From positions 1 to 64,000 of the forward strand of contig JAHBWE010000017.1 of NCBI GenBank assembly GCA_019637155.1: a stretch of 64,000 bases of DNA. Direction: 5' to 3'. Made by a program: the position numbers and the translations under genes. Source of the DNA: Labilithrix sp. Its GTDB lineage: Bacteria > Myxococcota_A > Polyangia > Polyangiales > Polyangiaceae. Numbering within the stretch: the stretch's first letter is position 1; each line of letters begins with the position of its first letter. Below are positions 43,316-47,017 of this stretch, in pieces. Below the pieces are notes generated by a model that saw nothing but the letters and a program-made list of their open reading frames with translations, did not search any database and had not been told where the DNA came from.

Positions 43316-44656
43316 CTACTTGATGCCGTAGCGTTTCAGCTTCTCGTACAGCGTGCGGAGGCCGATCCCGAGCTTGGTCGCGGCCGCGCGGCGGTTGCCG
43401 GAGACCTCGCGCAGCGTGCGCTCGATCGCGTCGCGCTCCATGTCCTCGAGCTTCGCCGGCGCGGCGGACGACGGCGCCGTCGTCGCGGTCGAGTCGAGCC
43501 AGAGATGCTCCGGGTGGAGCACGTCGCCGTCGGCGAGGATCAGCGCGCGCTCGAGCGCGTTGCGGAGCTCGCGGACGTTGCCGGGCCACGCCTCTTCGCG
43601 AAGGCGATCGCGGAGCGCGGGATCGATCGCCGGCGCCGCGCGCCCCGCCGCGGCGGCGAGGTCGCGCACGAGGCGCTCCGCGAGCGGGACGATGTCCTCG
43701 CGGCGCTCGCGGAGCGGCGGCAGGCGGATCGGGAACACCGCGAGCCGGTGGTAGAGGTCCTCGCGGAAGGTGCCCTCCTTCACCATCGCGCGGAGGTCGC
43801 GGTGCGTCGCCGCGATCCAGCGGACGTCGACCTCGATGCTCTGCGTGCCGCCGACGCGCTCGAAGCTGCGCTCCTCGAGGACGCGGAGGAGCTTCGCCTG
43901 GATCGGCGCGGCGAGCTCGCCGACCTCGTCGAGGAAGAACGTGCCGCCGTCGGCGAGCTCGATCCGGCCGCGGCGCTGCGCGTGCGCGCCGGTGAACGCG
44001 CCCTTCTCGTGGCCGAAGAGCTCGCTCTCGAGCAGCGACTCGGTGAGGACGGCGCCGTTGATCGCGACGAAGGGCGCGTTCGCGCGCGGGCTCGCCTCGT
44101 GGATCATCCGCGCCGCGACCTCCTTCCCCGTGCCGCTCTCGCCCTGGAGGAGCACCGTCGCGCCGCTCTTCGCGACCTTCGTGAGCGCGAGGACGACCGG
44201 TGTCATGCTCGGCGCGCCGTACGTGAGCGGCGTGCTCGTGACGACCTCGTAGGTCGGCTTCGGGGCCATCTGCGCGCGGCGGGCGAGCGCGCCCCTCACG
44301 AGGTCGCGCACCGCGGCGGGGCTCGACACCGGCTTCTGCAGGTAGTCGAAGACGCCGAGCTTCATCGCCTCGACCGCGGTCGCGACGTCGCCGAACGCGG
44401 TGAGGACGACGAGCTCCACGTCCGGCTGCTCGGTGCGGAGCGCGCGCACGAGCTCCATCCCGCCGAGGCGCGGCATCTTGAGGTCGGTGAGCACGACGTC
44501 GAACGGCTCCGCCCGCGCGAGGGCGAGCGCGGCGGCGCCGTCGGCGGCCTGCACGATCTCGTGGCCGTCCTTCTCGAGCGACTCGGCGAGGAACTCGCGG
44601 ATCCCGTCTTCGTCGTCGGCGACGAGGACGCGGCCGGTACGTTTGTCGTTGCTCAT
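43316..44656 (-). CDS. sigma-54-dependent response regulator (NtrC family: REC + AAA+ + Fis HTH)
   Basis: REC with D-D-K, GESGTGKE Walker A, GAFTGA sigma-54 contact motif, C-terminal HTH. Confidence 0.9.
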   Translation of the reverse strand: MSNDKRTGRVLVADDEDGIREFLAESLEKDGHEIVQAADGAAALALARAEPFDVVLTDLKMPRLGGMELVRALRTEQPDVELVVLTAFGDVATAVEAMKLGVFDYLQKPVSSPAAVRDLVRGALARRAQMAPKPTYEVVTSTPLTYGAPSMTPVVLALTKVAKSGATVLLQGESGTGKEVAARMIHEASPRANAPFVAINGAVLTESLLESELFGHEKGAFTGAHAQRRGRIELADGGTFFLDEVGELAAPIQAKLLRVLEERSFERVGGTQSIEVDVRWIAATHRDLRAMVKEGTFREDLYHRLAVFPIRLPPLRERREDIVPLAERLVRDLAAAAGRAAPAIDPALRDRLREEAWPGNVRELRNALERALILADGDVLHPEHLWLDSTATTAPSSAAPAKLEDMERDAIERTLREVSGNRRAAATKLGIGLRTLYEKLKRYGIK

Positions 44657-45966
44657 GACGCCTGCACCGGGATCCGGAGGTCGAAGACCGCGCCGCCGTC
44701 GGGGTGCGTCGCGCCGTCGAGCGTACCACCGTGCTGCTCCGCGATGCGGCGCGCGACGGCGAGGCCGAGGCCGGTCCCGCGCGTGCGCGTCGTCACGAAC
44801 GGCTCGAAGATGCGCGCCTCTTCGCCGGGCGGGAGGCCGGGTCCGCGATCGCGCACCGAGACGCGGAGCTGGCCGTCCTCGTGTGTCGCGACGAGCGAGA
44901 CCTCCGCGTCGCTCGCCTTGAGCGCGTTGTCGACGACGTTGTGGAGCGCGCGGCCGAGGCGGTCGAGGTCGGCGTCGATCGCGGGCGGCGCGCGATCGAG
45001 ATCGACCTGCACGCGCGCGCCGTCGAGATCGGCGAGCGCGCGGTCGACGAGCGCGCGGGGCGTGACGGCGGCGCGCTCGATCGGCCCGTCGCGGACGAAG
45101 TCGAGGAGCGAGGTCGTGAGCACCTCGAGGCGCTCCGCCTCCGCGACGACGCGCTCCGCCTTCGCGCGCCGCTTCGCGTCCGCGCCCTCGGCGGCCTCGG
45201 CCTCGGCGAGGTCCTCGACGAGGAGCTGGGCGTGGCCCTTGAGCGACGCGAGCGGGTTGCGGAGCTCGTGCGCCATCACCGACGACATGCTGCCGAGCGC
45301 GACGAGGCGCTGCGCCCGCGCCGCGCTCGCCTCGAGCGCCGCGACGCGCCGCGCGCTGCGCGACCACGCGACGGCGAACGCGAGGAGGATCGCGCTCGCC
45401 ATCGCGGCGACGACGCCGACGCGGGTGTGATCGCGCTGGAGCGTCACCATCATCGGCGGCTCGAGCTCCACCGCGAGGAGCGGCCCCGCGTTCATGCGCC
45501 GGACGACGACGTAGCGAGGCGAGCCGTCGATGGGGGAACGATCGCGATGCGCGTCGATCGGCGGGAGCTCGTGCGGGAGCGCGGGCGGGTGAGGAGGAGG
45601 GACGATCCCGAGCGCGCGGACGCGGCGCCCCTCGATCGTCGCGGCGCCGGGGCGCGCGGGGCCGGAGGGCATCGTCGCGTGACCCGCCTCGACGACGGGT
45701 CGGCCCTCGCGATCGACGAGCGCGACGTAGCGGAGGCCCTCCGCCTCGTGAGCGGCGAGGAGGCGGCGCAGCGTCTCCGCGTTCGGCGGCTGCACCTCCT
45801 CCGCCGTGAGCTCCGACGCGAGCGCCGCGAGGACGATGTCGCTCTCGCCGCGCGCGACGAGCTCGGAAGCGTCCGCGAGCGCGCGGCGCGAGGTCGCCAC
45901 CGTCACCCCGAGCGCCACGACCGCGAGCGCCGCCATCGCGACGCCGCCCAGCCGACCCGTCTTCAT
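44653..45966 (-). CDS. sensor histidine kinase (HisKA + HATPase_c)
   Basis: H-box HELRNPLASL, N/G boxes; TM segment; ATGA overlap with RR gene. Confidence 0.85.
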   Translation of the reverse strand: MKTGRLGGVAMAALAVVALGVTVATSRRALADASELVARGESDIVLAALASELTAEEVQPPNAETLRRLLAAHEAEGLRYVALVDREGRPVVEAGHATMPSGPARPGAATIEGRRVRALGIVPPPHPPALPHELPPIDAHRDRSPIDGSPRYVVVRRMNAGPLLAVELEPPMMVTLQRDHTRVGVVAAMASAILLAFAVAWSRSARRVAALEASAARAQRLVALGSMSSVMAHELRNPLASLKGHAQLLVEDLAEAEAAEGADAKRRAKAERVVAEAERLEVLTTSLLDFVRDGPIERAAVTPRALVDRALADLDGARVQVDLDRAPPAIDADLDRLGRALHNVVDNALKASDAEVSLVATHEDGQLRVSVRDRGPGLPPGEEARIFEPFVTTRTRGTGLGLAVARRIAEQHGGTLDGATHPDGGAVFDLRIPVQAS

Positions 45967-45979
45967 GCCTTCGTCCTTA

Positions 45980-46019
45980 CTGCGGAACCCGCAGCCGATG
46001 GAGTGCGGATTCTGCACTC
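45980..46019. promoter_or_regulatory. Two inverted repeats (CTGCGG-aac-CCGCAG; GAGTGC-ggattct-GCACTC), candidate enhancer (UAS)
   Basis: Located 50-90 bp upstream of sigma-54 -24 element. Confidence 0.4.
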
Positions 46020-46068
46020 TTCGCCGAGCGCGACCGCGAATTGACGCGTTTTTTGGGGAGTCATCGAT

Positions 46069-46085
46069 TGGCAGGCCCTTTGCGA
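46069..46085 (+). promoter_or_regulatory. sigma-54 (-24/-12) promoter TGGCAG-N5-TTGCG
   Basis: tTGGCAGgccctTTGCg: GG and GC separated by 10 nt, about 50 nt upstream of ATG at 46136. Confidence 0.6.
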
Positions 46086-46135
46086 TGAGCCCCAGCACGC
46101 TCCGAGCCACGGAGCTTCAGGAGAAAGACAGCCCC

Positions 46136-47017
46136 ATGATCTCGATTCGTTCGCTCTCGCTTCCGGTCCTCGCCCTCGCCTCCCTCGTCGCAGGTTGCAG
46201 CGCGGAGAGCGGCACTACCTCCGGCGCGGAGACCACCGATTCGGCGCGCACCCAGATCGTCACGCAGGTCGAGCTCGCGTCGGCGGAGGAGCGCGGCGCC
46301 GGCCCGATCCACCGCCACGGCCCGCACGGCGGCCCCGACTTCCTCGTCGGCGCGGCCCTTCGCGCGCCGCTCGACCTCACCGCCGAGCAGCGCGCGACGA
46401 TCGAGGGGCTCACGCACCGCGAGCGTCCGCCCTTCGATCCGAGCCGCGCGAAGGAGCTCGCGGCCGCGATCCGCGCCGGGAACGTCGCCGCGCTCCCGAA
46501 GCCGCCGGCGCCGGACCTCGCCGCGACGGCGAAGACGATCCAGACGCTCCACGACACGCTCACCGCCTCGCAACGCGCCGCGCTCGTCGACGACATCGAG
46601 GCCCACGCGCCGAAGGTCGATCCGAGCAAGGAGGGCCCGAAGGGCGCCAAGGGTCCGCCCCACGTCATGCGCAAGGTCGTCTTCCCGTTCGGCGACGACC
46701 TCGGGCTCACCGACGCGCAGAAGGAGGAGCTCAAGGCGCGGATCGAGGCGAGCGCGCCGGCGAGGCCCGACCCGGCGAAGCTCGCGGAGATGCGCGGCAA
46801 CATGGAGGCGGCCCGCCTCGACATGAAGGCGAAGCTCCAGAGCTTCAAGGCCGACAGCTTCGACGCGACCGCGTTCGTCACGCCGCCGGCCACGGCGAAG
46901 CCGAACGTCGAGCTCCACCTCCGCGGCAACCCGCTCGCGGACCTCGTCTCGGTGCTGACGCCGGAGCAGCGCGAGAAGCTCGCGCAAAAGATCGAGCTCG
47001 GTCCGCCCGCGCGCTGA
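46136..47017 (+). CDS. periplasmic LTXXQ-motif lipoprotein (CpxP/Spy-like)
   Basis: Lipobox LVAGCS; four LT(A/D/P)(E/S/A)Q repeats. Confidence 0.7.
   Translation: MISIRSLSLPVLALASLVAGCSAESGTTSGAETTDSARTQIVTQVELASAEERGAGPIHRHGPHGGPDFLVGAALRAPLDLTAEQRATIEGLTHRERPPFDPSRAKELAAAIRAGNVAALPKPPAPDLAATAKTIQTLHDTLTASQRAALVDDIEAHAPKVDPSKEGPKGAKGPPHVMRKVVFPFGDDLGLTDAQKEELKARIEASAPARPDPAKLAEMRGNMEAARLDMKAKLQSFKADSFDATAFVTPPATAKPNVELHLRGNPLADLVSVLTPEQREKLAQKIELGPPAR

Follow-up and report, generated by a model that had tools for sequence, protein, structure and literature searches.

ZraR, the response regulator (RR) of the ZraPSR system (zraP / zraS-zraR, formerly yjaI / hydH-hydG), controls the divergent sigma-54 promoters of zraP and zraSR in Escherichia coli and Salmonella (PMC4987338). 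ZraPSR is regarded as a functional homologue of CpxPAR, with ZraP as its periplasmic accessory protein (PMC12314577; PMC10848872). The histidine kinase (HK) ZraS is described as zinc- and lead-activated (PMC12314577), and zinc is viewed as an envelope damage marker in E. coli (PMC10848872). In the E. coli intergenic region, TGGCAC-N5-ATGCA faces zraP and TGGCAT-N5-CTGCT faces zraS; the two promoters are separated by an inverted repeat of 20 bp, GAGTAAAAATGACTCGC-N12-its complement. The DVU3381/DVU3382 system of Desulfovibrio vulgaris includes a GAFTGA-bearing RR, DVU3381, whose regulon comprises its own operon and the nearby small gene DVU3384 and has been classed as envelope stress (PMC4641369; PMC3333781). 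Myxococcota are reported to be rich in bacterial enhancer-binding proteins (EBPs) (PMC12316311). Here we analyze a 64,000-nucleotide stretch of Labilithrix sp. (contig JAHBWE010000017.1, positions 1 to 64,000; hereafter the window) with a G+C content of 69.7%, in which genes for an HK and an NtrC-family RR diverge from a gene for a lipoprotein with tandem LTXXQ domains. This three-gene unit is probably a self-contained signaling cassette of Labilithrix/Polyangiaceae myxobacteria. The genes and principal intergenic elements are listed below, numbered from the first letter of the window.

43316..44656, minus strand: RR, an NtrC-family response regulator of 446 aa, with Pfam domains and motif coordinates as given in the text
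44653..45966, minus strand: HK, 437 aa, comprising a first transmembrane helix (TM1), a periplasmic PDC-like domain of ~150 aa, a second transmembrane helix (TM2), HisKA and HATPase_c
45980..45994, no strand assigned: inverted repeat CTGCGGaacCCGCAG, predicted activator site 1 (weaker copy, CTGCGGAACCCGCAG), its center at ~-108 from the predicted transcription start site (TSS)
46001..46019, no strand assigned: inverted repeat GAGTGCggattctGCACTC, predicted activator site 2 (strong copy, GAGTGCGGATTCTGCACTC), its center at ~-85 from the predicted TSS
46069..46084, plus strand: predicted sigma-54 promoter TGGCAGgccctTTGCg (TGGCAG-GCCCT-TTGCG), -24 GG at 46070-71 and -12 GC at 46082-83
46136..47017, plus strand: lipoprotein, 293 aa, with two tandem Spy/CpxP-fold domains (aa ~62-160 and 183-293)

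Seventeen loci from species-representative genomes, retrieved by lipoprotein profile and all assigned to Labilithrix, Polyangiaceae or "Myxococcales", were compared with the window. The gene order, with HK and RR on one strand and the lipoprotein gene divergent from them, was kept in 13 of the 17. Compared with the window proteins, the RRs of these 13 loci are 72-80% identical, the HKs 49-60% and the lipoproteins 34-49%. None of the flanking genes was kept with the cassette across loci, which limits it to exactly these three genes. The other four loci (L012, L013, L015 and L017) carry paralogous tandem-LTXXQ lipoprotein genes that are 36-43% identical; no kinase or EBP was found within 2-5 kb of them, and neither a -24/-12 motif nor the palindrome GTGCGGAATCCGCAC is present. 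Promoter and palindrome were thus found in 13/13 loci with an HK-RR pair and in 0/4 without one (Fisher exact p ~4e-4). This split is the strongest argument that the adjacent RR, rather than another activator, serves the predicted promoter. An initial annotation of the window had suggested that this RR activates the LTXXQ gene via upstream repeats, and, as far as sequence goes, the conservation and strict co-occurrence support that proposal.

The RR is a bacterial EBP combining Response_reg, Sigma54_activat, AAA_lid_14 and HTH_8 domains (Pfam). Its phospho-acceptor is Asp58, within DLKMP, and its GAFTGA motif is intact (aa 219-224, window 43985-44002). The GAFTGA loop is the contact to sigma-54, and an EBP in which it is intact implies sigma-54. 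The HK stop and RR start codons overlap as ATGA; the two genes therefore form one operon, co-transcribed and translationally coupled. The GAFTGA motif, the HK and RR coordinates and the minus-strand co-transcription given in the initial annotation are confirmed. Its other gene and element coordinates were likewise found where it had placed them, except for the lipoprotein ATG (see below). Along its full length the RR shares 42% identity with E. coli ZraR. It scores below every NCBIfam equivalog cut-off, and the AtoC (431 bits) and NtrC (399 bits) models score it above the ZraR model (353 bits).

The predicted promoter of the lipoprotein gene has 52 nt between the end of its TTGC and the ATG, close to the ~50 nt originally described for a near-consensus sigma-54 element, and its predicted TSS falls at ~46094-46096. 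Taken alone, a single -24/-12 match is weak evidence. When up to two mismatches were allowed, TGGCAC-N5-TTGCW was matched at 16 sites in the 64-kb window versus 11.5 +/- 3.2 expected; since this relaxed consensus is not enriched, the promoter question was settled by comparison with related loci, and the relatives make the promoter call, still a prediction, strong. The stricter motif TGGCAR-N5-TTGC occurs once in 64 kb, with 0.04 occurrences expected. Each of 12 related loci of 7-11 kb holds exactly one copy, homologously placed and on the same strand. TGGCA(A/G)-N5-TTGC is present in 13/13 loci linked to the two-component system (TCS), 43-141 nt before the lipoprotein ATG, with the variant TGGCAT-N5-CTGC in L014; the sequence in the cultured relative Labilithrix luteola DSM 27648 (locus L002, lipoprotein AKJ09_06567) is TGGCAGGGCGCTTGCT. 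The window was also scanned for intrinsic terminators and sigma-70 consensus promoters, and neither was found for the cassette genes. Elsewhere in the window, TGGTACGCCCGTTGCT (1332-1347, plus strand) lies one mismatch from the sigma-54 consensus, apparently intergenic between poorly defined open reading frames.

Upstream of the promoter, the initial annotation had noted two inverted repeats as separate elements. Both are present; they are not different elements. Each matches the same palindrome, GTGCGGAATCCGCAC, so the two repeats are a weak and a strong copy of one site. From the -24 GG, the distances upstream to the site centers are 83 and 60 bp, and the core of site 2 is one mismatch from the family consensus. 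A strong palindrome with 0-2 mismatches was found upstream of the promoter in 14/14 loci (13 relatives plus the window), and a second, weaker copy 21-24 bp away, center to center, in 12/14, none being called in L005 and L011. The predicted sites are about two helical turns apart and so on the same DNA face, as expected for two EBP dimers nucleating an oligomer. In 12 related loci of ~10 kb, the core TGCRGAWTCYGCA is confined to the DNA between the HK and lipoprotein genes; it was found neither in the four loci without the TCS nor in the E. coli zra locus. Outside this region, the 64-kb window holds only one poorer match to the full palindrome, with three mismatches, at 24115. In an alignment of five loci sharing the site order of the window, both sites and the -24/-12 element stand out as three invariant blocks in otherwise diverged sequence, with TGCGGA..C.GCA of site 1 invariant.

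The lipoprotein gene diverges from the HK-RR operon and encodes exactly four LTxxQ motifs (LTAEQ at 46376, LTASQ at 46559, LTDAQ at 46706 and LTPEQ at 46955), as the initial annotation had it; the ATG it implied at ~46137 is at 46136, preceded by the ribosome-binding site AGGAGA at 46119-46124. The N-terminus comprises a signal peptide and the lipobox LVAG/C21, the slash marking the position before the cysteine. A homology search matched the protein at 100% identity to one encoded in the metagenome-assembled genome of a Labilithrix sp. (Myxococcota), which NCBI lists as a "Spy/CpxP family protein refolding chaperone". Pfam LTXXQ (PF07813) matches its C-terminal half with 33.1 bits against a threshold of 24.3. 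A family profile built from 33 homologues matches Spy (E 5.5e-8) and CpxP (E 3.5e-5) through the N-terminal half, covering the whole Spy fold, and the glutamines of the four motifs (Q85/Q146/Q195/Q278) are invariant in the family alignment. A fold search also supports Spy/CpxP homology and the helical-hairpin fold of that family. The family profile was needed for these matches, as single-sequence phmmer against the PDB returned none. Profile-profile comparison shows the two halves to be homologous (hhalign 97.6%, E 3.3e-12); BLASTP between them was not significant. Together with the Spy and CpxP matches, this makes the protein a lipid-anchored fusion of two Spy/CpxP-type domains rather than the single-domain (~100-140 aa) soluble homodimer characteristic of the CpxP/Spy family.

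Two low-complexity segments accompany these domains. The His/Gly/Pro-rich HRHGPHGGP (aa 55-63, window 46298-46324) precedes domain 1, and GPKGAKGPPH lies in the inter-domain linker ahead of the second Spy-like domain. In homologues the His/Gly/Pro-rich segments are longer and richer in His, recalling the HGGHGMW and GGGGHMGMGHW ends of E. coli ZraP. A gene with TrkA_N/TrkA_C domains (47069-48133, plus strand) begins 51 bp 3' of the lipoprotein gene with no terminator between them, and by eye the hydrophobic stretches at the N-terminus of its product appear membrane-spanning. This TrkA-like gene was considered as a cassette member and rejected, as it is not kept beside the cassette in relatives.

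The HK has HisKA and HATPase_c domains (Pfam), with His233 as the H-box histidine, and a PDC-like periplasmic sensor flanked by two transmembrane helices. The sensor region (aa ~27-185) has few detectable relatives. In its structural model (pLDDT 75.5) a long helix leads into a sheet of five strands; aa 131-159 form a disordered insert rich in proline. The kinase core is 33% identical to ZraS, and the HK scores 74.6 bits against the CpxA model, for which the cut-off is 486. No similarity was detected between the HK and ZraS sensors by hhalign (0.07% probability). The HK start is ambiguous. The ATG at 45966 has a good ribosome-binding site (AAGGA..GAAGG), and the Met equivalent to the alternative ATG at 45936 was chosen by gene callers in 5/6 homologues. 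Site 1 is 14 bp from the first of these codons and 44 bp from the second; either ATG leaves almost no promoter room before the activator sites.

Two further elements lie in the intergenic region.

46039..46054, no strand assigned: A/T-rich tract aattgacgcgtttttt, read from sequence, separating the promoter from the activator sites
46099..46115, plus strand: hairpin GCUCCG-agcca-CGGAGC, ~5-20 nt into the predicted lipoprotein mRNA

Although the G+C content is ~70%, visual inspection shows AAAA/TTTT tracts in the corresponding position of most related loci, and the A/T-rich tract is a possible intrinsic bend or IHF-type site that might aid looping. L001-L006 and L009 share the identical hairpin stem, and in L008 and L016 its position is taken by different hairpins; the hairpin sequence is conserved only within one subgroup. 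RNAalifold over 13 leaders gave no consensus structure. As the hairpin shows no covariation, an RNA 5' stem-loop and a DNA operator are not distinguishable. An Rfam scan of the window returned no family.

Domain make-up, the conserved promoter and sites, and strict co-occurrence with the HK-RR pair are read directly from these comparisons, and we consider it likely that they reflect a circuit in which the HK-RR pair acts through sigma-54 on a tandem Spy/CpxP lipoprotein, with the logic of ZraPSR. In this circuit a periplasmic or envelope cue would be sensed by the HK through its PDC-like domain, and the HK would phosphorylate the NtrC-type RR. Once phosphorylated, the RR would bind both palindrome copies, centered ~85 and ~108 bp before the predicted TSS, and oligomerize. 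The DNA would loop across the A/T-rich tract, allowing ATP-driven opening of the E-sigma54 closed complex at TGGCAG-N5-TTGC. The output would be a membrane-anchored periplasmic protein of two fused Spy/CpxP-type domains. This lipoprotein would most likely serve as an ATP-independent envelope chaperone or buffer and, by analogy with CpxP and ZraP, may feed back on the HK. RR binding and activation, the signal, chaperone activity and feedback are inferred; family membership suggests the envelope-stress function of the cassette.

Several points weigh against this circuit. The promoter departs from consensus in two places: the last base of its -12 element is G where A/T is expected, and the sixth base of the -24 element is G/A in place of C. 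The lipoprotein TSS, its sigma-54 dependence and RR binding are predictions. Myxococcota carry sigma-54 and many EBPs, and sigma-54 is presumed to be present in this host. No promoter of the HK-RR operon was found in the window. Given the distance from the HK start to site 1, whichever ATG is used, the HK-RR transcript must start within or beyond the activator sites.

A second sigma-54 promoter, as would serve positive autoregulation of the HK-RR operon, was likewise not found in the window. The sole minus-strand GG-N10-GC candidate there is TGGCTCGGAGCGTGCT (46109-46094), one of the 16 sites of the relaxed scan, which faces the HK gene 10 bp from the lipoprotein promoter and overlaps both that promoter and the hairpin. 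It was rejected as the HK-RR promoter: it is a by-product of the hairpin, is common only to the closest relative (L003) and would stand face-to-face with the lipoprotein promoter. Two distant Polyangiaceae relatives carry a well-placed TGGTAC-N5-TTGCG facing the kinase gene, at 4715-4730 in L014 (TGGTACGCGACTTGCG) and at 4703-4718 in L016 (TGGTACGCGCATTGCG), both on the minus strand. These motifs lie ~65-105 bp from the shared palindromes, a placement found only in these two loci, and with them the full Zra back-to-back layout appears to exist within the cassette family.

Other explanations of the same features differ in what they leave of this circuit. The -24/-12 match and inverted repeats might have arisen by chance in GC-rich intergenic DNA, the true promoter being of an unrecognized sigma-70 type. 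The unremarkable yield of the relaxed scan fits such an account, as does the poor modeling of myxobacterial sigma-70 promoters, for which the scan found none here where about none was expected. We nevertheless regard it as extremely improbable, because the exact motif, with 0.04 occurrences expected in 64 kb, is nonetheless present once and because motif, strand and position are kept, together with the palindromes, in 13 loci whose surroundings have diverged. The sigma-54 promoter might instead be real and served mainly by another EBP, the adjacent RR mainly targeting elsewhere and its adjacency being coincidental or historical. Myxobacteria encode dozens of EBPs, for which cross-regulation and hetero-oligomers have been reported (works cited in PMC7910581), and RR binding to the sites is itself a prediction. 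This, too, is very unlikely: promoter and palindromes accompany every HK-RR locus and no paralogous locus lacking the pair, only these three genes are conserved together, and the palindrome is absent elsewhere in the ~10-kb loci, the window offering only its three-mismatch match.

A different question is whether the same wiring serves the sensing or buffering of a metal such as zinc, with the lipoprotein binding metal through its His/Gly-rich segments like ZraP. The N-terminal half of the lipoprotein gives a weak Pfam match to Metal_resist, the ZraP family (E 4.4e-4, below threshold). HRHGPHGGP stands ~16 residues before the first LTAEQ, loosely like HGGHGMW...LTSEQ of E. coli ZraP, and homologues have His/Gly-rich segments here and in the inter-domain linker. 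The reported activators of ZraS, zinc and lead, would also suit this proposal (PMC12314577). The His columns are not conserved, however, with only G66 and P67 nearly invariant; the family profile matches Spy and CpxP and not ZraP (hhalign 1% probability), and the kinase sensor has no similarity to that of ZraS. On balance we consider a metal-dedicated system unlikely. It is compatible with the proposed envelope circuit insofar as, by analogy with E. coli, zinc may mark envelope damage.

The circuit with the adjacent RR as activator of the lipoprotein gene could be extended further, to a streamlined, Polyangia-specific envelope sentinel. In such a sentinel the lipid-anchored single-chain Spy/CpxP "pseudo-dimer" would be both a membrane-proximal chaperone and a co-sensor gating the PDC-like domain. 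In the Labilithrix branch, where the activator sites abut the kinase start, bound RR would obstruct its own operon, giving negative rather than Zra-like positive autoregulation of HK-RR, and the 5' hairpin of the lipoprotein mRNA would contribute a post-transcriptional layer of control. As a joint claim, this combination of pseudo-dimer chaperone and co-sensor, negative autoregulation and hairpin control is speculative, and we doubt that all of its parts hold.

The initial annotation had likened the locus to CpxAR-CpxP wired through sigma-54. The sigma-54 wiring fits; as a new design the analogy does not hold, since the architecture is already that of ZraPSR (PMC4987338, PMC12314577) and of the D. 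vulgaris regulon (PMC4641369). Searching the literature for sigma-54 in combination with LTXXQ yielded no result. The regulators differ between the present cassette and Cpx: the cassette RR is an AAA+ EBP with GAFTGA and no Trans_reg_C domain, and CpxR, of the OmpR/PhoB winged-helix type, works at sigma-70 promoters. The ATP-independent periplasmic chaperone Spy, which is controlled by Bae and Cpx, is soluble and forms a homodimer of single-domain chains; the cassette protein differs in having two domains fused in one lipid-anchored chain, under predicted dedicated sigma-54 control. The D. vulgaris system shows that Zra-type circuits exist in the former Deltaproteobacteria. It differs in that the targets of DVU3381 include the operon encoding it; no such autoregulation is evident in the window. 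DVU3384 carries a zraP annotation and is a putative member of the CpxP/ZraP family.

ZraPSR, and not CpxAR-CpxP, is the closest known system to the cassette. Both pair a membrane HK with a co-transcribed NtrC-family sigma-54 activator (REC-AAA+-HTH_8), and in both the gene divergent from HK-RR encodes a periplasmic member of the CpxP/Spy/ZraP group. In both, the accessory gene has a sigma-54 promoter (in the cassette, a predicted one), with inverted-repeat activator sites in the shared intergenic region. They differ in the DNA site, which is the GTGCGGAATCCGCAC palindrome in the cassette and has GAGTAAAAATGACTC-type arms in E. coli zra, and in the effector, a 293-aa two-domain lipoprotein compared with the soluble 141-aa ZraP with its one LTxxQ. 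The window also lacks a conserved sigma-54 promoter for the kinase operon, and the kinase sensor domains of the cassette and ZraS are unrelated in sequence. Orthology to Zra was rejected, given the negative hhalign results for ZraP (1% probability for the lipoprotein family against the E. coli protein) and for the ZraS sensor; model scores were 352.8 versus 760 bits for ZraR and 155.4 versus 479 for ZraS (NF007689, NF007688).

Nothing here overturns current understanding. The design is already known, and the variant features are the fused two-domain lipoprotein effector and the single sigma-54 promoter. What the locus offers, for one of the numerous orphan EBPs of myxobacteria, is a clean regulon prediction that lends itself to experiment, with an exact promoter, two sites and a single target. 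The fused lipoprotein is in addition a natural test of whether one chain can build the chaperone cradle normally made by a homodimer. The Zra design, in which a sigma-54 TCS is joined to a CpxP-superfamily protein, is thereby found well outside Enterobacteria and without detectable orthology to Zra itself.

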